Positions 4,346 through 63,610 of a stretch of DNA of 64,000 nt are shown piece after piece. Below the pieces are notes generated by a model, which saw only the letters and a program-made list of their open reading frames with translations, had not been told where the DNA came from and made no database searches. Position 1 is the stretch's first letter. Every line of letters begins with the position of its first letter. Position numbers and translations under genes: made by a program. The DNA is from a virus, in IMG/VR virus record IMGVR_UViG_3300045988_076504, positions 32,001 through 96,000 of that record, one strand, 5' to 3'.

Positions 4346-4993
4346 ATGGCACAATATTTAGATTTAAACGGATTGCGTACGGTTGTAGACAATATAAAAA
4401 ACATTAAATCCCCTGTTTGTTTACCTACTTACGATAGGCGTTCCTCCTTATCATCCACAGCAACTGTGAAAAATGAAACTGCCTCCTCATATACACTTAT
4501 TATGTATGATACGAGGAGCTTGAGGTTTTTAGCATTGTCGAATGGAGCATTTTACACCAGGTGGGATTCTAATTCGAAACATTTGAGTTACGATTGTTAT
4601 GGAACACCATTGGACACTGGTGTACAACCTAAATTTGGATATTTATATGCAAATGTATTTGATAATACATTATAGTTAGGTGGAACAAATGGACAACTTA
4701 AAAATGTGGCAAATTATACAGCCCCAACAACATGGACTACTGTAACAACGTCTCCTATAAGTGGTGGGGATACAATTACAAAAATGGAAAAAAGCGATAC
4801 TGGAAATGGTACATATTTGTGGAGAATAACTGTAAAAAATCCAAATGCGGACGCTTGTGACTTTCTCGTATAGGATGCTGCCGGCAATAATTTCATACAG
4901 TATGGTATATATTTAGAAGGTAAGCAGTCTGGTACGTTTACAATAGAATTACCAAAAACAACTCCAAATGACCGTTTTTACGTCACAACATAA
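4346..4993 (+). CDS. Tail-fibre-like protein, paralog 3
   Basis: N-terminus MAQYLDLNGLRTVVDNIKNI. In-frame TAGs at 4673 and 4871. TAA at 4991. Confidence 0.65.
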
Positions 4994-7065: not shown

Positions 7066-9945
7066 ATGAAAATTCAAAAGAAGCAAGAAATTGAATTCTT
7101 TGGTACCAAAACAGGCAATGCTAATTCTATCGCTTTAGGCTACGCAACTGAGACTAAGAACTTCGGGGAAGTTGCTGTAGGTGTAATGAATAAGTCTACC
7201 GCTGCTAAAGATCCAAATAGCCCAAAAGGCGTTTGCGCTGATTCTGATGCCACTTTGTTCTCTGTTGGATGTGGTGGAAGCGGGGAACGAAAGAACGCGT
7301 TAGAAGTAAAAGGAGACGGCTCTGTGTTGATTTCTGGAGAGAATGGTGATATAAATGTTGCCGATAAAATTAAGCAGGCTCTCGATACAGATGCAAGCAT
7401 TGAACTTGTTAAATCTACAGAGAGTGATCTCCAGTATACACTTATGGTTAACAACGAGTCACGTGGAAGCATAAATATTCCAAAAGATCAATTCTTGAAG
7501 AATGTAACGTATGATACTGAAGCTAAACAGCTTGTATTTACGTTTGTAACACTTGATGAGGAAGAGCATGTAGAGAAAATATCTATCAACGATCTGAAAG
7601 ATGTCTATACAGCTGGTGATGGTATTAACATAGATAATAATGTAATATCTGCTGATTTTAGTTCTGTCATGACAGCTATATCTGATGAAAAGACTTAGAG
7701 GGAAACGACTGATAACGAAATAAAGTCTACATTAGATACTAAAGCTGATTTAAATAATGCCATAACTTATCGTTCAGATAATATAAGTGGATTATTTAAC
7801 AACGATGGAAACAAACAAGAATCTTATGGTTATCGTTGTGTGGATATAGGTTTTAATAATGTAAGAAACTTTAGCAATACTTGCATTTCTATAGGTAGCG
7901 ATAACAACCAACTTGAAAGAGGCGATAACACTATTTGTATGGGTACATCAAACACTTTTAACTATGGTAGTGTTTGTGTTGGAGACAATATAAAATCCAG
8001 ATATACTAATTCTATATATATTGGAAGTGGAATAACCACAAAACAAGACACCTTTGGTTCACTTAACACTATAATTGGCAGTTATGACGGTTTAAATGTT
8101 GCTTGTACACCGATTGGATTTATTAGCGTTGGGTTCGGACCTCGTGCCGACAAAGACGGAAAAGTACTTTATCAAATCGGAGCTCATCATGCTACAGATT
8201 ATAACAAAGATAATTATAATCTAGAAGAAACCCTTACTTCTGATTACGATCATAAAAAGTATATTTATGGTATTGGTGGTTATGATGGTACAGACCCTGT
8301 AACAACTAAAGCTAAATCTCTTCAAGAAGTCTTAGATACTAAAGCTAACAAAACAGATGTAAATAGTCGTTTAGATGATTTACAAAACCGTTGTTTTAAG
8401 TTTGGAATTGATGGTAGCATAGCAGCTCCATATAAAGGAATACCTACAGATGATTCAAAACTAAAGATTAAAACATTAAAGGATAATCAAGAATATACTT
8501 ATGTTAACGTAAGTGGTATTTTAGAGCCTGGAGACCCAGCTTATAATTGTATATATGATAAAACTCTCGATAAAACCATTAATATTATAACTAGTGATGA
8601 CTTTATTCCAACAAATAAAGAAGGTGATTTTTTTAAAACATCTGAATCTCTTGATTTAACTCACACATTTTATCTTGATAATGAAAAGACAGGTATTGTT
8701 GATAATCTTACTCAACTTACCATTGAAGAAACTAATGTTTTTGTAAATTTTCCGTATGTGGAAATTAATGATAATCTTAATGACAGTGAAGTACCACAAT
8801 ACATATATGATGCAACTGATAATAAATGGATAGAAGTTGTTGATACATTTTATACCAGTTCGTATGTTGGTTTTAATACAGAAGAACCATTAGATTTGAC
8901 ACATGAATTTTATAATAATGTTATAGGAAATTGGACAAGCGTTGGAGAACACTCTACAGCATTAGGTTGTTATGCGTATTCAGGTGGAAACGAATCTATA
9001 GCATTAGGATGTTTTACAACAGTAAACGGCAATGGTTCTACATGTTTAGGATATAATTCACAAGTAGATGGAGACGAATCTATTGTATTAGGATATAATT
9101 CATCATCAAAGGCGAGTTATAATGTAGTATTAGGACGAAAAATAAAATCTTACGCAGGTGCGTCTAATAGTGTAGCAATAGGAACTGGTCTAACTGTAAA
9201 TGGAAATCATGCTATCGGGATAGGAGATGGAATAGATTTAAATAATGATAGGAGTATAGCAATAGGAGATGTTAGCTATGTATCTGTTGGAGCTATAGCT
9301 ATTGGTAATAATAATAATGCAACAGGAGACACGTCTATAGCTATTGGAGATACCACTCGCTCAAAGGGTAACTATTCTACATGTATTGGTTATCGTGCAA
9401 ATGCAACCGGTCTTAATTCTTCAGCTTTAGGTGCTTATTCAAGTACTGGTGGAGATTATGCTATAGCTCTTGGTAAAAACATGTCAAATACTAAATCAAT
9501 ATTTGGTGTTGGTTTTAATGGTGTGAATGGTATCGATATGGATAGAGATAATTATGGTCTTTATCTTAAAGGTTTTGGTGGTTATGATGGAACTAATCTT
9601 GTAGTACCGAGTGGAAATACTGAAACTCTCAATCCTGGTATTAAAAGTGTTCAGCAAATAATTAATGAAAAAGCTGATGCTTCTGCTTATTATACTAAGA
9701 CTGAAATAGATGGTAAGGGTTATCTTACAGCTCACCAATCATTGGATGATTATGCTAAGAAAACTGAAATACCTAATGTTAGTACCAAAGCCGATCTCGT
9801 TGATGGTAAATTAAAAGCAGAACAATTACCTAAGCTCGATAATATTGCGGAAGCCACCACAACAGAAGACATGATAACCAAATTCAACGATTTACTTGCC
9901 GATTTGAAAGCTAAAGGTTATATGACTGCCGACATAACAACATAA
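7066..9945 (+). CDS. Large tail fibre/spike with YadA-head-like (Hep_Hag-type) repeats
   Basis: ORFs 7066-7698 and 7840-9945 are both frame 1, joined through a single TAG at 7696 (checked codon by codon). Has repeated SxAxG / SIAIGD / NATGxxSxAxG units like trimeric autotransporter head repeats. TAA at 9943. Confidence 0.75.
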
Positions 9946-31400: not shown

Positions 31401-34400
31401 TTGGCGAATATGTAGGATTCCCTGTCGTGATGTATAAAAACGCAATAGTCGATCCGTCATATTATATTGCAGATACATCTATTCGTAATGAAGATACAAT
31501 GTATCCTAAACAAATACGCCTCGTTAAGGATTTAAAGGACAAAAAGGGCAATCTCATATGTAAGGCTGGTGATATATTACAAGGAGCTGCTATATTGTAG
31601 GATCAAGATAAACAAACATTAACAACGTTGTTTTATCAGTCTATAAAATCACAGAAGATGAATTTCAACTTCTTCAACATTAGAAATTCTAAAGGTGAGA
31701 ATGGAAGATATGAATATTCATATTAGCCTACAAATACAGACAGATCAATATCTCAGTTGCCTATAGGGTGGTTTGATAATATTAGAATAGGTCTTACAGG
31801 TTTGTATAACAAAGATGGTTCTGTTAATAAGTCTAACAAATCATTTGAAACGACAAGGCAATTCTTGATGTCCATAAGAAACCAGCTTATTAATAATTCT
31901 GGATAGGTATAGATTGGTGATAAGATATATAAAATGAGCGACGCCGCTGATTTCGATCATGTTGTTTCTGCTACTGTACAATCTTTAAATAATGTTGGCA
32001 TAATGGTAAATAAAGCAACATGGTACAACATGTTGCATCGATTAAATCCGAACGAAACCGATTACACAATATCGTTTAGAGAGATCATGACAGCAAGTAA
32101 CGAAAAAGGTCTTAGTATCGCGCCATTTATAGAAAAAGGTGGAGTATTAGATAAATTACAAAAAGCTGTTGATTCTGGCGATTTGAATATGTTTACACAA
32201 GACGTTGCACAAACTGGAAAGAGAGGTGGTTATTCTGGAGCATATTTATACGCTAGAAATAATTTTGTTAGAAGACTTGCTGAAGAAACCGGTGTATATC
32301 GGTCAGCAACATCTGAAATAATGACAATTGGAGCAGGAGATACTAAATTGTATATGTATGCTCAAAACAATACCGCATCTGATGTTACTGACGATTTGAA
32401 TTCATCTCTTAACGAAGACGGTACGGTTAGAGAAGGATCTATTTTGAGCGATATGTAGAATGTAGAATATGTAGTTTATCATGACGACCGTGGCGGTATA
32501 CATGGATCTGTAATAGCAAAGGCTTTATTAGATCCTAATTTTAATAGAAATCATAACAGACTCGAAGTTATTACAGAAGCCGGTTCTAAACAAAGATTTG
32601 GACCAAGAGATAGCGTAAAGTTTGCAGAAATGGAAAAACGAACAGATTATCTTTCTCGTATTCAAAAAATAACAGACGGTCTTATCATATTCCCAACATT
32701 GTCTGATAAATCCACATATATGACAATAAAAGGTTTTGATAAACAGTACAGACTTCCAGGATTTAATTACGACTAGAATATTACAGAAACAAGTTCTACT
32801 GCAGATTTAAATAATTTCGGGAAACTTCCGTTCATAAATAAAAACAACGGTGCTCTTATATTTGATGCTGCTGATAAATACAACAATTATTCTCAAAACG
32901 AAGTGATCGACCAGTTTATAGAGTATTATGAAGCAGAACATCGTAATGTGTTAAAAACGTTAAATGAACTTGGATTTGGTCCGGACAAAAGTAAAAAATT
33001 ACCTAAAGAATAGCTGGTTAAGAACTATCATACCGGTAGTATGAACGGTGCGAGATATACTTCTATTTCTGGAATATATGATGAAAATGGTAATTTTATA
33101 TCATTTAATTTTAAAACCGATTCCGAAGATAAAGGTGTTATTGAATGCAACAAGATTGCAGAAACAGAATTCTTTAGTAAGCCGATAGAAGAAAAAAGAG
33201 CGATTGTTGCTAGAATATTAAAACACAGACTTGATGACGAATTACGCGGTTTGGTTGATGCCGGAATTATACAAAAGCAAAATAATGACAATTCTTCTCG
33301 GAAGAATGCAGATTATAATAATTATAAAAACGTGTTTTTATCGAATAGTGTGATAACACAACTAAAATAGGCGTATTCGTTAAATGAAAACTTTAAGAAA
33401 GCTGCGCCTGGATCATTAAATACTGAAAGTTTAGCTGTAGTAGCGTATGTATACGATATTATGTGTAAACATCTGATGTGTATAGAAGAAACACGTAGAT
33501 TCTATACAGGTATGCCCCAGTTCTTTAAAACAAGTTTCGGAGAAGATGGTCGTTTAACTGTTTTTGGAAATGATGAAACAAAACGTTACGGTGGTGTCGG
33601 ATCTACTGGTGTAAACAATAGAGAAGATATTCCGGGAATGAACGATGATTATCGTGTAGCTGAAATAAATGATTGGGAAACACCGTCTCCGGTTTTAGAT
33701 TCTTTAGGAACGTTGTTTAAGATTGGAGAATATAGAGAGGCAGTCGCTAATATAAGATTGCGAGAGCTTGGAGAAAATGCAAACGAAATTTAGAAATATG
33801 CTTTGTATGATTCTGTAAATTAGATGGACGAAGATGCAATGCGAGAAGTACTAGATGAAGCAGGCGTATTAAAAATGCTGGATAAAAAGATAGAAAAAGA
33901 AGCAAAGGCTTTCTCTAATGTGAATGTAGCTGATGGTACGGCATTCATTAGTGACAAGATGTGCGAAAATCTTTTGAAACAGCGTGGCGCATTTACAAAA
34001 GCTGTTGAAAATGCATTTAAAATACTGCGTAGTGATTCTGACGATTATCTGAAATTGTCCCAGTCATATAAAATTATACACAACGCTATGATCTCTACAT
34101 AGAAATATTCAGCGTTTGGTTATAGAATGGAGAATGGTACACCTGTACATTATTATAATAAATATGCATTATTTCCGGTCTTTAAAGGAATATCGTACGG
34201 CTTTATGAAGAATCTGTATGAAAAAATGAATGACGCTGAGAATGGAGTAGATGTTGTATTGTTTACATCTGCTGTTAAAGCAGGATCTCGTGGAGCACAG
34301 CGTTTTGATCCGAACATATCTCAAGAAGAAATTAAAAATTTCTCGTTTAAGGGTCATATATATAAGTAGAAATACAAACATATGCGTAGACAGTTGAACA

Positions 34401-49530: not shown

Positions 49531-49602
49531 CCATATTGACAAGATTCGAACTTGCATACGTCAGCTTAATAGCTGATGCCTTACCTGTCGAGCCACAATA
49601 TT
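49531..49602 (-). ncRNA. tRNA-like element with a non-canonical anticodon loop
   Basis: The - strand sequence folds as a 72-nt cloverleaf. Acceptor AATATTG/CAATATG has a 1-72 mismatch. D arm is TG-GCT-CGACAGGTAA-GGC. T arm is GCAAG-TTCGAAT-CTTGT. The anticodon hairpin is TCAGC-TATTAA-GCTGA, giving a 6-nt loop, or an 8-nt loop CTATTAAG if the closing C-G pair opens. No standard 7-nt loop is possible. Confidence 0.4.
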
Positions 49603-56998: not shown

Positions 56999-57054
56999 TA
57001 AATAAAATAATAAAATGAAAACAAAATTAAAACACTCTTACGATTAAAATTTTG

Positions 57055-57138
57055 TACCTCCAGCGGGACTCGAACCCGCACGTCACATGGGACAACAGAT
57101 TTTAAGTCTGTAGCGGCTGCCAATTACGCCATGAAGGT
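57055..57138 (-). tRNA. tRNA-Leu (anticodon UAA, reads UUA), class II with long variable arm
   Basis: - strand: ACCTTCA TG GCGT-AATTGGCAG-CCGC T ACAGA-CTTAAAA-TCTGT TGTCCCATGTGACGT GCGGG-TTCGAGT-CCCGC TGGAGGT A. The acceptor is 7 bp with one G-U pair. CCA is not encoded. Confidence 0.85.
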
Positions 57139-57233: not shown

Positions 57234-57761
57234 CTACTCAAAGAAATCCACACCTTTGACTCCAACTCTGATTTCGCACAGAGGATCGCCTGATCCCGGC
57301 AAGCGTGCGATTTTAATACCATCCTTGGATTCAATCTTAATGTGTTTATCTATTTTATCACTAACAGAGAAACCCGTTGTATTTAACGGGCTTTTGACTC
57401 CATACCTTGCGGCATCAAATAAACGATCTACTACAGTGTCATATTCTTCTCGCATTACAGCATTACGTATTACCTCCTCACTCAAGCCTTTGAGTATCAC
57501 ATCGTTGATATTACGTTCCTGTCCTGCAAGAGCTGCAACTGTTTTAATAGCGAAGTCTGCAAAAGAAATAGTCTTTTCATCTCCTATAAGATGATTCCAC
57601 CAAAGACACCCTGTCTTTCCAAATGTGATAGAACCATCTTCATTAATGGATACGCGACTATATAATTCTTTCTTAGACTCGTCAATCAAATTCCGTCTGA
57701 TTGCCGGATCCAAGAATAGAATTTGTATTTGCAGTTTACTTCTCTGACTAATCTTTTTCAT
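57234..57761 (-). CDS. Hypothetical early protein (terminates with TAG)
   Basis: Intact 175-aa ORF. The stop codon is TAG (+ strand CTA at 57234-57236). Codon usage is GC-richer than most of the window. Confidence 0.75.
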   Translation of the reverse strand: MKKISQRSKLQIQILFLDPAIRRNLIDESKKELYSRVSINEDGSITFGKTGCLWWNHLIGDEKTISFADFAIKTVAALAGQERNINDVILKGLSEEVIRNAVMREEYDTVVDRLFDAARYGVKSPLNTTGFSVSDKIDKHIKIESKDGIKIARLPGSGDPLCEIRVGVKGVDFFE

Positions 57762-58369
57762 TAATCAACAGTTACATTTACATGCACCTCGCTCTTCTTC
57801 TGGTCGAGCTGGCGATAATAATCGTTTACTCCGGATATATTCTTGTCGAATGTATCCTGAATCATCTTACGCATCTTCTCAAGATCCTTCGTGAGCTCGT
57901 CGATACGACGCATCTCAGTGGCGTTAGCAGGATTCAATGCCTCAGCAAGCTTCTTTGCATTTGCAAAATAAGTTACTGTAAAATCCTTCTTGTTAAGAGC
58001 GTCTGTCACAGTGTCTGTAGTGACATCCTTTGTGAACTTCTCACTGTCGATTGGACAACGAACCTCTACAGATTCGCCTGAATCATCGACACGACCCCTG
58101 TTGATAACCACAACATTGGTTCCGTCTACATCCTTATCCAAATCGAGACCGATAATGTCGATAGGTACTATCTTATATCGGAATGGTGTGCGGTTTGTTA
58201 CTAATCCGTGATTCTCATTTGCATCGCGGAGCTTCTTGTTAAAATCAAGGTCACATGGTACCTTAATAGCCTTAAAGATTCGCTTACCGTAAAGCGATCC
58301 AAAATTGCTGATATTTACTCTGTTGTCTTCTACAAGTCTTACATTGATGTTTAATGTTTCGTTATTCAT
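57761..58369 (-). CDS. Hypothetical early protein
   Basis: Intact 202-aa ORF. Its TAA overlaps the downstream ATG by 1 nt. GC-richer codon usage. Confidence 0.75.
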   Translation of the reverse strand: MNNETLNINVRLVEDNRVNISNFGSLYGKRIFKAIKVPCDLDFNKKLRDANENHGLVTNRTPFRYKIVPIDIIGLDLDKDVDGTNVVVINRGRVDDSGESVEVRCPIDSEKFTKDVTTDTVTDALNKKDFTVTYFANAKKLAEALNPANATEMRRIDELTKDLEKMRKMIQDTFDKNISGVNDYYRQLDQKKSEVHVNVTVD

Positions 58370-60370
58370 AATAATTTATCCTTTTTGATATCGTGTTTGA
58401 TTACACCCACGATAAATTATGTAAAAATTCTCCTCTCAGCTCAGAGAAAGCTATAAATGCATCGTTTGATGCTACTCAAGATTTATTTTATACAGTGTCA
58501 AGTTTCTTTATGACCGCTTTATAAGCGTAAGTCACTATATGTGGATTCCAACGATAGGAATAGCTTAGCCTCATATAGATATATACGACAGACCCGGATC
58601 TCTCACGGAAAGCTTTGAATGACCGGTGTACATCATGTACTAAATCTTATAAGTAAAACTAAATTTTTTGAAATAAAGTTTATATTCATCATCCGTCCAA
58701 CGCTCTAATGTTTCTGGAATCGTGGAGGGTTCATTGGCTGAGATGATGAATATTACCCACAAAAATAAAAAGTGAGAATATCTTCCTTGTGCATTTCCTA
58801 AAACTAAGAAAACATTCTCCGATGCTGTACAGTCTTACGATACTGTTTAGGCGCATCTGCCACTATTCTAAGTACTGTGTAGAATAATCAATACACGTTT
58901 CATTATCGAACAGTCTAGCCTTCAGGGGGTATCTACGACTCTACGGCGGTTATTCGATGGAAAACCTTGCTAAAAACCTTCTTCTATTTATAGTGCACGA
59001 ATATTGGGGATTTCAGCCCCGTACATATGTATATGTTATCACCCACATATTATTTTCACGCCCTACAGAGACAGTGTAGACCGTGGTGGGTTAAGTCTCC
59101 CACAGGCATACGCTTTACGCACTGCTAGTATGATTTCTCATTTTAATAATATGCTGCCTACTATATTTTCTGTACTGATTCTACCTTTCGCTTGACGCAT
59201 ACACTTGCGGATGTATACTTTAGGCTGGTTATCATAACGGTTGGCACTCGAACTTTCAGACCTCGTTACTCCTTATTTACAACATAAGTTTTTCACTATC
59301 TGAGGACATCGATTTTTGTTAAACATGTTACTTTAATACTTAATATGTAGTTTTGTTCCTACACCATAATATCAAAATTTTTCATATACATACTTATGCT
59401 CATAATATATGCACTATTATTATGTACAATAACTATCATTGTTCCTTTCGGTTCTTTTTCTCTGTATAGAGAATAATAGATATTATATATTATATATGAA
59501 CATGTGTATATTATTATTTGATATTTTTATTGGCATTGAGGTAATTGATTACAACTGGAATGCTGCTCTTATTTACTCAATGTATGTTTTTAGAAAGCCC
59601 CTCAAAAACATTAAAACGGCTGGTTTGGCTGTCAAGTAGCCACCTATGATGTCATATTTCATATAATACTAAGATTGCTAATGTCTTGTACTATAATCCT
59701 GTCTTCAGTCCTATGAACGCCGACTCTAGAGGCTGTGCAGCTGCCATACGCACCTAGTCATTTTACTTTTATATACCGCATAAACGACCAAAGCCTGGCG
59801 GTCTTATCTCATTATAAGCGAATAGTTTTCTCAGCCTCAACTCTTTACTGCATCCCTGGACCCTTCTTTGGCTCAAAAGGCTGCTGAATCGAACAGCACA
59901 GATTTATCCCTGGACACTACGTTTACTGCGTAGCTTGGTCTAACTGACAATAATATGATCTGACTCACATATTACCTACCAAGTCCTTCTCTATTCTATC
60001 TTATACCCTAATAAAATTTTCATCCCTTCATACACAGTTTGGACCTGTGGAACACTAGATTAAGCAATGATGTATCACATAGAGGTTGGAAGTCTATGTG
60101 TTCAGCACTTGTATACGGTTACCAATGTAATCCACATCAAAATTACAAAGAGTATTAGCTACCGGTTCATTTTGCTCTTCTTGAGACTTACGCGTCTTCC
60201 TAAGTCGTTATTCGCCAGACGGTTCTCAATAACGCTGTTGGGGTTGATACAACGCTCTCCCCACTTACATATTACTTTTCACATAATATGCATTTCATCC
60301 TACCTTTTGAGTTATCTCGCCTTTTGAGAAGGTTAACATATTCTCGGATCAAGTTTATTTCGTACACGAG
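58370..60370. other. 2.0-kb ORF-free, hairpin-dense region (candidate large ncRNA(s) and/or origin/regulatory region)
   Basis: No ORF over 86 aa in any frame, and stops of all three kinds are frequent, so TAG read-through does not rescue it. Examples of structure: a 12-bp helix 58682-58693/58742-58753, 7-bp stems 58864-58870/58880-58886 and 60076-60082/60094-60100, and the repeat ATCCCTGGAC at 59852 and 59906. An AT-rich core lies at about 59300-59560. Confidence 0.6.
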
Positions 60371-60823
60371 CTAATGAGACTCGTTATATGTACTGACGGA
60401 GGTGTCTTCGACTGAATGATCGTAATCATTCTCTCCCGGAGTGAATATCGTTTCGCAGTCTATGTCTTCAGGGCTAGCTTTCCTTACAACATATTTAGCT
60501 TGAGAATCACTGCAGGTTTGCTCCTCACGAACCTTTGATGAAGCAATATACAATATAGGTACATACAACGTATCATGTACTGCATATGGTACTTTCACCA
60601 CTTTTACATTCTCTTTATGGTTGCACACTTGTGATGTTGTCTCAGGATTGACAGGATCACGTTTCATATGACTCAGCTGGAGATCATATGGCAATTGCCC
60701 TATTACAGGCATCACTGGTGCAGCTTGTATAGTTACACCAGGATCTGCTCTATTGTTTATTCCTACTAATAGGCCGTATAGTAGTAACATTGAGCATGAA
60801 ATAATTGTTGTTAACTTTTTCAT
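60371..60823 (-). CDS. Secreted/membrane-anchored hypothetical protein (terminates with TAG)
   Basis: 150 aa. Signal-peptide-like N-terminus MKKLTTIISCSMLLLYGLLVG. The stop codon is TAG (+ strand CTA at 60371-60373). Confidence 0.7.
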   Translation of the reverse strand: MKKLTTIISCSMLLLYGLLVGINNRADPGVTIQAAPVMPVIGQLPYDLQLSHMKRDPVNPETTSQVCNHKENVKVVKVPYAVHDTLYVPILYIASSKVREEQTCSDSQAKYVVRKASPEDIDCETIFTPGENDYDHSVEDTSVSTYNESH

Positions 60824-61179
60824 TTTGATAATGTGTTAAGCGATAGCTTCTTTCTTTTCATGGTCTACTATTACAGTAATACCATTATGTCTAGGTACCA
60901 TCATCGATACGTCAAGATTATGTGTATAACCTCGGGCGTCTAAATTGTTGATGACTTTTCTAAGCTTTTTCTACTACCGATATGAATTTCTGACATTTTG
61001 ATAATGTTTTTAATTGTTTTAGGAGTTGCGAATGCGTCTTCCAAATTTTGGAATTCCACCTTCATCTAGTTCGACATGCAAAAGATTCTTTATAGATGTA
61101 GCTACTCGTCTACAAGAATCTTTTACATCGTCGACAACTAGTTGAATATGTCTTTTTTTACGAATCTTTCGTAACTCCT

Positions 61180-62684: not shown

Positions 62685-63056
62685 TCAAGACGAGTCAAAA
62701 ATAAATGGAACTAATCCATCACCATAAAGAGGTGAGAAATTTTGTTCACCACTAAGAGTTGTAGATTCGGTGGTACAATAATGTACAACCGGTGTTTCAC
62801 AAGTAGGAACTACTTCTTCGGTGTTACTAGGTAACAGGAATTGAGCAGTGGGCATACTGCTGTTAAGTGTCAGATCCTGTGAAACACATTCTACGTTACT
62901 CTCCTTATTGTTTCCAATATTGGCTGCAATTGTACCGCCAATAAACCCGCTCATCATTGAGATAAGCAGAATCCAGAATAATTTGTTACTCTTGTTGTAT
63001 CGAGCAAGCAAGAATATAACAACTATTCCTACGAAGAATGTTAGAAGATTTAACAT
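62685..63056 (-). CDS. Membrane protein (two predicted TM segments)
   Basis: 123 aa. Segments LLTFFVGIVVIFLLA and LFWILLISMMSGFIGGTIAANIG. Its start overlaps the sigma-factor stop by 7 nt. Confidence 0.7.
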   Translation of the reverse strand: MLNLLTFFVGIVVIFLLARYNKSNKLFWILLISMMSGFIGGTIAANIGNNKESNVECVSQDLTLNSSMPTAQFLLPSNTEEVVPTCETPVVHYCTTESTTLSGEQNFSPLYGDGLVPFIFDSS

Positions 63057-63610
63057 AGTTTCAGTTGTTTTTTTAGGTTATTGCGAACTCTGTGTAGACA
63101 TGACTTTATAGTTCCCACTGGCACATTTATCGCTTTACTTATTTGAGATACTGTCATACCATTTTCATAGTATAGTTTGACAATTCTTTTGCTATGTTCT
63201 GGTAACTGATCGAATATTTCGACCATATTATCGTATGTCAGAGTAGTATTTTCATCTACAGTACTGGTAACATCTGATAATTGTATACCTGATTCCTTGT
63301 CATCTATTGATATTGCTTTGTTTTTCAACGACCGCAAATAATCAATGGCAGTATTTTTTGTCATTATTCTCAACCATCCTCCGAATGAAGAATAGTCTGT
63401 GAATTTCGAGAGTTTTTGATATATTTTCAAGAATACAATGTTCGACAAGTCTTTAGCCTCATCATAATCATTTATATACTGATATAAAAGATTTATTACA
63501 AAATCTTTATATTTATAATATATCAAATTGAATGCCGATTCTTTACCGGCTTTGGCATCTTTGATTATCCCAATTTCTTCTGGAGTAATTTTGGGTGTTT
63601 TCATAATCAA
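63050..63610 (-). CDS. ECF-type sigma-70 family sigma factor
   Basis: Region 2-like: DEAKDLSNIVFLKIYQKL...FGGWLRIMTKNTAIDYLR. Region 4-like: LPEHSKRIVKLYYENGMTVSQISKAINVPVGTIKSCLHRVRNNLKK. Confidence 0.8.
   Translation of the reverse strand: MIMKTPKITPEEIGIIKDAKAGKESAFNLIYYKYKDFVINLLYQYINDYDEAKDLSNIVFLKIYQKLSKFTDYSSFGGWLRIMTKNTAIDYLRSLKNKAISIDDKESGIQLSDVTSTVDENTTLTYDNMVEIFDQLPEHSKRIVKLYYENGMTVSQISKAINVPVGTIKSCLHRVRNNLKKQLKLC

Follow-up and report, generated by a model that had tools for sequence, protein, structure and literature searches.

A conserved 2-kb non-coding locus of delta crAss-like phages that probably specifies a large structured RNA

Introduction

To our knowledge, few large structured RNAs are known beyond ribosomal RNA (rRNA), RNase P RNA, transfer-messenger RNA (tmRNA) and introns, and OLE, GOLLD, ROOL and raiA each revealed an unexpected RNA architecture. 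The pRNA of phi29 and similar phage RNAs are 70–200 nt long and have one or two domains, GOLLD measures about 0.8 kb and ROOL about 0.6 kb. GOLLD and ROOL are large, ornate non-coding RNAs (ncRNAs) of bacteria and phages, which assemble into homo-oligomeric cages according to cryo-electron microscopy (cryo-EM) (PMC12286853). Here we describe an element found in a 64,000-nt stretch of viral DNA (positions 32,001–96,000 of IMGVR_UViG_3300045988_076504, hereafter the window, to which all coordinates refer). It is a conserved non-coding element of about 1.98 kb, 58374–60357, on the minus strand, so that its 5' to 3' direction runs from 60357 down to 58374. An earlier note, made from the letters of the window, had pointed to a coding desert with dense secondary structure at 58370–60370, and had offered large structured ncRNAs, possibly of the GOLLD/ROOL kind, or a replication origin or promoter hub as explanations.

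On sequence grounds, the window phage belongs to the old 'delta' group of crAss-like phages, where it is nearest to the Oafivirinae. The locus is non-coding and conserved, it shows covariation, and its strand is established. We consider it likely that 58374–60357 specifies a large multi-domain structured ncRNA, or several such RNAs in close succession, read from the minus strand. The first of the two explanations of the earlier note is indeed the one that synteny, conservation without codon periodicity and covariation in three domains support.

A conserved gap without coding capacity

The region 58370–60370 sits between the minus-strand genes 60371–60823 and 57761–58369. Its longest open reading frame (ORF) has 86 aa (60067–60327, plus strand), and the next two have 66 and 63 aa. 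The longest run without a stop is 87 codons in the standard code, 112 if TAG is read as sense, 112 for TGA and 122 for TAA, whereas each of the 2-kb control windows taken between 46 and 58 kb contains at least 188 stop-free codons. Among 85 relatives, the longest run has a median of 98 codons in the standard code, which rises to 143 when TAG is read as sense. The absence of plausible genes on both strands, as first noticed, is therefore confirmed.

Conservation extends over the whole element, since conserved blocks span it from end to end in the alignments of relatives. In a 31-sequence alignment, the blocks of the gap are 65–88% identical to the window, compared to 40–45% for the adjoining coding sequence (CDS). 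The relative power of the three-base periodicity of column conservation is 0.05 in the region and 4.95 in the left-hand CDS. The locus is under stronger purifying selection than the neighbouring genes.

A protein gene concealed by unusual decoding, by frameshifts or by misassembly is hardly conceivable under these conditions, and we reject hidden coding and alternative codes. It is true that delta crAss-like phages recode TAG in their late genes (PMC7886860) and that some database records annotate CDSs in the gap. But no frame is open for more than 122 codons under any single reassignment, the runs in the 85 relatives are equally short, conservation has no codon periodicity, the small ORFs of the gap have no Pfam match, the gap recurs in independent assemblies, and it is ORF-free across the relatives examined. 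As a matter of fact, the annotated CDSs are few, and they are short, non-homologous or interrupted by in-frame stops: cr7_1 4473–4955 (with two in-frame stops), Bohxovirus sp. PV686213.1 4837–5343, L007 4167–6175 and L142 3790–3951; Dulem virus 42 has eleven tiny ones. These annotations are probably artefacts.

Searches of the region against phage genomes with blastn return crAss-like phages only. A gap of 2.0–2.2 kb, free of ORFs and with the same gene neighbours, is present in five genera of Oafivirinae (Chuhaivirus, Cacepaovirus, Burzaovirus, Buhlduvirus and Bohxovirus) and in the unclassified Dulem virus 42, and it is in this gap that their matches lie. The Loutivirinae (cr53_1, cr4_1, cr52_1), which form a divergent subset, have gaps of about 2.1 kb. 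The slots of three other subfamilies were located by walking upstream from the DNA polymerase gene, and their gaps measure 1.85 kb in Uncouvirinae (cr114_1), 2.08 kb in Bearivirinae (cr6_1) and 2.48 kb in Boorivirinae (cr1_1). The gene order in these three is: sigma factor, a hypothetical protein, a protein of about 460–570 aa, one of about 130–155 aa, the gap, and two proteins of about 165–190 aa. In each of the five delta subfamilies examined, an ORF-free gap of 1.85–2.5 kb thus occupies the corresponding syntenic slot. It adjoins, on one side, a small gene that follows the sigma-factor operon and, on the other, two small genes that precede the tRNA/DNA-polymerase module. According to the current NCBI taxonomy, the Oafivirinae belong to the Darmviridae and the other four subfamilies to the Suoliviridae; since members of both carry the gap, the locus is distributed over the whole former 'delta' group. 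None of the genomes examined for the gap, all of this same group, is without it. In crAssphage (Intestiviridae), the gaps of the early module do not exceed about 0.7 kb, and the covariance model R1 of the 5' domain (see below) has no match in the first 50 kb.

At least 120 loci were recovered from IMG/VR with a DNA pattern built from two invariant blocks; among the matches listed, most are on contigs of about 50–106 kb. The 85 loci that have full flanks form 28 clusters at 92% identity. A scan of a genome collection for bacterial homologues returned only phage contigs (about 100 kb or shorter) binned into metagenome-assembled genomes (MAGs). Two element-carrying phage contigs of about 101 kb, which are complete, sit in MAG bins of Segatella copri. 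This hints at the host, a 2026 preprint on a related phage also suggests S. copri, and delta phages probably infect Segatella/Prevotella. Other copies are binned to Nitrososphaerales, Sphaerochaeta and Bacilli, which points to mis-binning.

Regarding known RNA families, Rfam 15 gives, over the whole window and at the gathering threshold, two matches, both to tRNA, no match at E ≤ 10 in 57700–61000, and no match at E ≤ 1 inside the gaps of five relatives. ARAGORN and the Rfam models for tmRNA, RNase P RNA and rRNA find nothing in the element. Since nothing in Rfam 15 matches, the element is not a GOLLD, ROOL, HEARO or OLE RNA, nor an intron, tmRNA, RNase P RNA or rRNA; for introns, this presumes that the group I and II models are present in the library of release 15. 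The likeness to GOLLD and ROOL proposed at first is one of analogy, in that the element is carried by a phage, is large and ornate and has tRNA genes close by; it matches neither model at E ≤ 10.

A very large self-splicing intron that lacks an ORF, or a degenerate form of a mobile retroelement, whose exons or insertion flanks would be the flanking ORFs, is a very improbable explanation. Group I introns are common in delta crAss-like phages (PMC7886860), the element is tightly bounded by two small ORFs, and introns are known to contain pseudoknots and T-loops; they also resemble the element in size class, in being pseudoknotted multi-domain RNAs and in having a conserved core and a variable periphery. 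However, no group I or II model matches at E ≤ 10 in the window or at E ≤ 1 in the relatives, and the element interrupts no gene: the upstream ORF has its own stop (TAG), the downstream one begins at an AUG of its own behind a conserved leader, and every genome examined (all of the delta group, none lacking the gap) has the two annotated as distinct genes. The locus contains neither a homing endonuclease nor a reverse transcriptase, and a fixed syntenic slot over five subfamilies is unlike mobile introns.

Covariation and strand

The helices were first defined by eye from compensatory changes and then tested in models. RNAalifold recovers little from wide all-lineage alignments; because the variable hairpins misalign in these, three domain-level covariance models were used, all on the minus strand: R1 (60357–60204), R2 (59908–59750) and R3 (59060–58885), for the domains that we call R, M and K. 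Canonical pairing in the fitted domains is 88–94%, compared to 22–50% in slid controls, and none of 500 shuffles reaches the observed pairing or covariation score in each of four alignments. The alignment of related phages, which the earlier note had put forward as a check, thus gives compensatory changes above controls in three domains.

The 5' domain, R, provides the strongest case. In its fitted alignment, 88.8% of the pair cells form standard pairs, against 65.8% after shuffling and 36–45% after sliding, 28 of the 33 pairs are compensatory, and several of them show four Watson–Crick types. A seed aligned with MAFFT only, and therefore not fitted to the model, gives 82.9% against 66.8% (shuffled) and 35–49% (slid), with changes on both sides in 26 of 33 pairs, and the observed value is reached in 0 of 500 shuffles. 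The model R1 matches all of the 100 sources searched and is detected in all five subfamilies; its matches in the other subfamilies are always on the strand of the flanking genes. For domain M (model R2, alignment A7), the values are 88.4% paired, 77.4% shuffled and 35–48% slid. For domain K (model R3, alignment A10), they are 93.5%, 86.7% and 22–50%, with six compensatory pairs.

The strand can be read from the non-canonical pairs, an A.C in a modelled helix being the would-be G.U of the opposite strand. G.U exceeds A.C in the three domains (140 vs 56 in R, 79 vs 10 in M and 77 vs 11 in K), and, in domain R, G.A/A.G mismatches are far more numerous than C.U/U.C (85 vs 5). Fitting the alignments gives the modelled strand some advantage, but the imbalance is strong and points the same way in all three domains. 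The minus strand also folds more stably than the plus strand in 21–28 of about 31 representatives for each of six segments. Since these observations and the strand of the R1 matches agree, the RNA is read from 60357 to 58374, in the same direction as the early/middle genes that flank it.

This asymmetry also bears on a role of the locus as DNA, either as a replication origin (maybe primed by a structured transcript or an R-loop, as in ColE1) or as a packaging or recombination site with hairpins in single-stranded DNA. Such a role has some points in its favour. The AT-rich core that had been noticed is real (GC 0.25–0.28 at about 59250–59700, over roughly 220–450 bp), the locus is a few kb upstream of the genes for DNA polymerase, helicase and primase, and its hairpins could also form in single-stranded DNA. 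Yet the excess of G.U over A.C and the exchanges of G.U for G-C indicate selection on one RNA strand, and G.T pairs are weakly stabilising in DNA. Iterons and repeated boxes are absent, the short direct repeats being present in two copies only; the cumulative GC skew changes monotonically between 54 and 64 kb, with no inflection; the genes on both sides of the gap are on the same strand, the gene-strand switch of the window being elsewhere, at about 46.2 kb; there is no excess of promoter-like sites; and conservation is lowest in the AT-rich core. We therefore regard a DNA-level element as improbable, and the origin or promoter hub of the earlier note finds little support. Nor are the flanks of the gap richer in GC than coding DNA, as had been stated: their GC is 0.34–0.44, compared to 0.31–0.48 in the neighbouring coding sequence.

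Several observations weigh against a structured RNA that extends over the whole locus. About 490 of about 1980 nt are rigorously modelled, and covariance-model alignments are biased towards the structure of the model itself. R2 and R3 have no matches in the other subfamilies, so that only the 5' domain is demonstrably family-wide. A helix scan of the whole region gives only about twice its parallel-strand null, and also yields many spurious long-range 'helices' rich in A and U. Some segments, mainly 59340–59560 and 58425–58525, are poorly conserved and have no consensus structure. No sigma-70-like promoter, enrichment of the Bacteroidetes –7 motif (TAnnTTTG) or intrinsic terminator is found at the element. 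Last, the folding energies of single sequences are close to those of shuffled ones, the z-scores of the two halves being –2.6 and +0.5 (minus strand) or –1.1 and +1.1 (plus strand). The dense structure announced at first is thus established only by covariation across relatives, and it cannot be demonstrated from the window alone.

Architecture of the element

Domain R (60204–60357) consists of five helices: P1 (60346–60352/60294–60300), P2 (60329–60332/60320–60323), P4 (60284–60292/60266–60274), P5 (60259–60263/60239–60243) and P6 (60228–60234/60206–60212). Its invariant loops and junctions include GAGAAUAUGU, CAAAAGGUAGGAU, AGAGCGUUGUAUCAA and UGAGAACCGUCUGGYGA, and GAGAACCGUCUGG is a conserved loop of the element. 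The domain begins 14 nt after the stop codon of the upstream gene in the window, and a further 150–260 nt away in Loutivirinae and Boorivirinae. In Loutivirinae (L139 1383–1535, L141 1389–1535), some 150 nt of additional structured sequence extend the element on its 5' side and contain covarying hairpins, one of which (ACAGU..ACUGU vs UGGUU..AACCA) comes with an internal C-GAGA-G element resembling a tetraloop; an AT-rich stretch before this extension is a possible promoter.

Downstream of domain R, the conserved block ACGCGUAAGUCUCAAGAAGAGCAAAAUGAACCG (60121–60200) includes a small CUC/GAG hairpin at 60176–60186, whose strands CUC..GAG are swapped for CCC..GGG or CGC..GCG in alignments A1 and A2, and a covarying hairpin (60147–60151/60121–60125). 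It is followed by a 5-bp hairpin at 60033–60049 (60045–60049/60033–60037), all five pairs of which covary in the helix scan.

Domain M (59750–59908) begins with a three-way junction closed by helix J (59900–59903/59852–59855), which contains a T-loop-type hairpin and the hairpin S2 (59877–59880/59862–59865), and it ends with a pseudoknot. The hairpin, UGCUG-UUCGAUU-CAGCA (59882–59898), has a 5-bp stem and a 7-nt loop, UUCGAUU, which we take to match the T-loop pattern. It is 100% paired in 32 distinct sequences, four of its five pairs are compensatory, and the loop is invariant in most lineages. The pseudoknot is of the H type (59755–59802) and is among the best-conserved blocks (conservation 0.79–0.82). 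It is formed by helices Hb (ACCGC 59798–59802/GCGGU 59775–59779) and Ha (UGGUCGU 59784–59790/AUGACUA 59755–59761) and its third loop, UAUAUAAAAGUAAA, is rich in A. In Ha, pairing reaches 92%, three of the pairs are compensatory and a G.U is exchanged for G-C; Hb becomes CUCAC/GUGAG in sequences of the Loutivirinae type. Two covarying hairpins follow (59722–59725/59707–59710 and 59639–59642/59626–59629).

The central segment, 59340–59560, has a GC content of 0.25–0.28, a conservation of 0.18–0.55 and no consensus structure, and is a variable spacer or domain.

Domain L (59190–59335) has two conserved single-stranded blocks, AACAUGUUUAACAAAAAU and UCGAGUGCCAACCGU. In alignment A8, the pairs of hairpin L1 (CUUAU-GUUGUAA-AUAAG, 59272–59288) occur as CG, UA, AU and GC, and hairpin L4 (59197–59218) is found as AUACA..UGUAU, AUGGA..UCCAU or UCUAGA..UCUAGA. 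The helix scan gives one more helix in this domain (59298–59302/59257–59261).

Domain K (58885–59079) contains the CUACA hairpin and helices K1, K2 and K3, model R3 covering 59060–58885. K1 pairs GUG-GGUGA (59039–59046) with UUCGUGCAC (58993–59000), and about 30 of 35 sequences have a G.U next to a U.G in this helix; K2 is 59017–59020/59006–59009; K3 pairs CCGUAGAGUC (58937–58946) with GACUGUUCG (58907–58915). The CUACA hairpin (59063–59079, pairing 59075–59079 with 59063–59067) has five covarying pairs in the helix scan.

Next comes a module that depends on the lineage (58682–58753). About half of the lineages have the 'type A' module of the window, and the others carry a different one, 'type B', at the same place. 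Type A is closed by the 12-bp helix of the earlier note (58682–58693, ATATTCATCATC; 58742–58753, GATGATGAATAT), which covaries (CAUCAUC/GAUGAUG, CUGUAUC/GAUACAG, AUCUAC/GUAGAU). The other helices which that note had listed are also present in the sequence, namely 58864–58870/58880–58886 and 60076–60082/60094–60100 (7 bp each), CTACA..TGTAG (59063–59079) and GTGGG..CCCAC. The 10-mer ATCCCTGGAC does occur at 59852 and 59906, but its second copy is specific to the clade of the window, so that the repeat is not a feature of the family.

The region 58541–58640 comprises hairpin B (AAUCC-UACCGUU-GGAUU, 58541–58572), the block AAAGCUUUGAAUG and a hairpin at 58628–58640. Compensatory variants are seen in alignment A1 (AUUCC/GGAAU, GCAU/AUGC, GAUC/GAUC), and the helix scan gives covarying pairs at 58637–58640/58628–58631 and 58569–58572/58541–58544.

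The 3'-terminal element (58374–58417, conservation 0.84) is one of the most strongly conserved stretches of some 40 nt in the locus and overlaps the ribosome-binding region of gene 57761–58369. Its inner hairpin, AUCGUG..CACGAU (58392–58414), is exchanged for AUCGUU..AACGAU in relatives. Its outer helix, AUUUAUC (58411–58417)/GAUAAAU (58374–58380), has 7 bp, four of them covarying, and its 3' strand is 5–11 nt before the AUG at 58369, which suggests translational coupling. The inner and outer helices overlap and are mutually exclusive, and one of them sequesters the ribosome-binding region; the element looks like a translational switch or operator.

Two short motifs recur on the minus strand. 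One, approximately AAUAUGU(G/A)(G/A)GUG, is found three to four times (59036–59056, 60258–60278, 59959–59980 and 58750–58763). The other, AACCGU, is found in several conserved loops or blocks (the loop of P6, that of hairpin B, a block of domain L and the block around 60150). Both could possibly be repeated sites of protein binding or tertiary contact.

Considered as a whole, the element has a conserved core (the five-helix 5' domain, the three-way junction with its T-loop-type hairpin, the H-type pseudoknot with an A-rich loop, and a long-range helix containing G.U pairs), which is interrupted by lineage-variable peripheral hairpins. Such a core with a variable periphery is the architecture expected of large functional RNAs.

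The element in its operon

The upstream flanking gene (60371–60823, minus strand) encodes an unassigned protein of 150 aa, for which tblastn finds no match in the phage collection. The downstream one (57761–58369, minus strand) encodes an unassigned protein of 202 aa, 27–45% identical to relatives in other genera. Among the neighbouring proteins, Pfam and PHROGs recognise only the DNA polymerase, whose gene is 3.2 kb downstream of the element (helicase and primase genes being also within a few kb), and a sigma factor of the extracytoplasmic function type (Sigma70_r2 and r4; 63050–63610, minus strand). The latter is 2.7 kb upstream, in the orientation of the element, and keeps this upstream position in all delta subfamilies examined. 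AlphaFold2 models of the 477-aa and 202-aa neighbours (predicted local distance difference test scores 74 and 73) have no significant fold match in the PDB. A tRNA-Leu gene (57054–57138) lies 1.2 kb downstream, and tRNA genes are similarly placed in relatives. In Bohxovirus sp. PV686213.1, a permuted tmRNA (RF04321, 70.6 bits; 9751–9940, minus strand) is found about 4 kb from the element; it is unannotated in the stretch examined.

Regarding stop codons, the gap had been described as bracketed by two TAG-terminated genes. The adjoining upstream gene does end in TAG, but the adjoining downstream gene ends in TAA, and the second TAG-ending minus-strand gene (57234–57761) is the second one downstream of the gap. 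The plus-strand late ORFs (1–46215) often end in TAG (six of eight sampled), and the minus-strand early genes mostly in TAA. This usage fits a reassignment of TAG limited to late genes, and the phage appears to recode TAG. Rfam also calls a tRNA at 49531–49602 (minus strand, 36.6 bits, E 5e-4) that is absent from the ARAGORN results; this may be a divergent tRNA, possibly one of the suppressor type.

The position of the element in a series of co-directional genes leads to the main rival of a stand-alone RNA. The element could be a cis-acting RNA, that is to say a very long structured leader, 3' untranslated region or processing hub within one operon transcript, without function in trans. It would time or insulate the expression of the downstream replication module, the possible means being attenuation, antitermination, RNase processing and control of the translation of 57761–58369. 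In favour of this, the genes on either side run in the direction of the element; 14 nt lie between the upstream stop and its beginning, and 4 nt between the end of its last conserved helix and the downstream start; it is not set apart from its neighbours by any promoter or terminator signal; its 3'-terminal helix pairs with the downstream ribosome-binding region and covaries; and the phage sigma factor is upstream in the same orientation. On the contrary, a 2-kb multi-domain structure with invariant loops, a T-loop and a pseudoknot exceeds the needs of any known leader, the core is far better conserved than the genes that it would regulate, and the 150–260 nt that precede domain R in Loutivirinae and Boorivirinae leave room for a promoter of its own. 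We consider a purely cis-acting RNA unlikely.

We therefore rank a stand-alone large RNA or ribonucleoprotein as the most likely form of the ncRNA, with the caution that this ranking is a prediction. The transcribed RNA would act in its folded state during infection, as a stand-alone RNA or as the scaffold or machine of a ribonucleoprotein, like GOLLD and ROOL, and not as DNA. Its 3'-terminal hairpin would pair with the ribosome-binding region of 57761–58369 and so couple the RNA to the translation of that gene. More tentatively, with a chance that we put somewhat short of even, it could be one continuous RNA of about 2 kb, larger than any structured ncRNA seen so far in a bacteriophage, and an essential, family-defining 'RNA gene' that acts as an RNA machine or as an RNA-only or ribonucleoprotein assembly (for example as ribozyme, as cage or scaffold, or by decoying host machinery). 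The 5' half (60357–59560) and the 3' half (59335–58374) may also be two RNAs, or the locus may specify more than two.

Comparison with known systems

Full-text searches of the literature gave no prior description of the element, nor did a 2023 review of the Crassvirales, a 2026 preprint on a related phage of Segatella copri and a paper on UG/Abi reverse transcriptases; subscription journals are thinly covered in such searches, so that a prior report is possible. The closest remark is that of Yutin et al. (2021), who mention stretches with no recognisable protein, chiefly in the Zeta group (PMC7886860). It concerns the same annotation anomaly in the same order of phages, but those regions are filled with short ORFs that have no matches, and they were not read as RNA.

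The phi29 pRNA, 6S-like RNAs, the put RNA and anti-defence RNAs are similar to what we propose in that they are phage-encoded structured RNAs which work as RNA in infection. The element is ten times larger than RNAs of the phi29 pRNA type and is unrelated to them in sequence. It is unusually large and without homology to any known RNA family.

It is important to note that the element is conserved more strictly than the surrounding proteins, in a group that is among the most abundant viruses of the human gut and has almost no molecular biology. R1, which finds the five subfamilies, is a sequence and structure marker of the delta group, and the element corrects spurious CDS annotations in RefSeq and GenBank. 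It is also a ready target for metatranscriptome mapping, for selective 2'-hydroxyl acylation analysed by primer extension (SHAPE) and for cryo-EM. It is two to three times larger than OLE, GOLLD, ROOL and raiA, and would rank among the largest structured RNAs of bacterial viruses. Even if it were only a giant leader, its regulatory architecture would be unprecedented.

GOLLD and ROOL are the RNAs to which it is best compared. Like them, it is phage-borne, large and multi-domain, has many covarying helices and tRNA genes nearby, and has no recognisable associated protein. Unlike them, it is found in one group of phages, in a fixed slot inside an operon, it measures about 2 kb, and it shares no homology of sequence or structure with either. 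If it proves to be a trans-acting RNA machine, it would open a new chapter in phage biology and form a new class beside GOLLD, ROOL and OLE.

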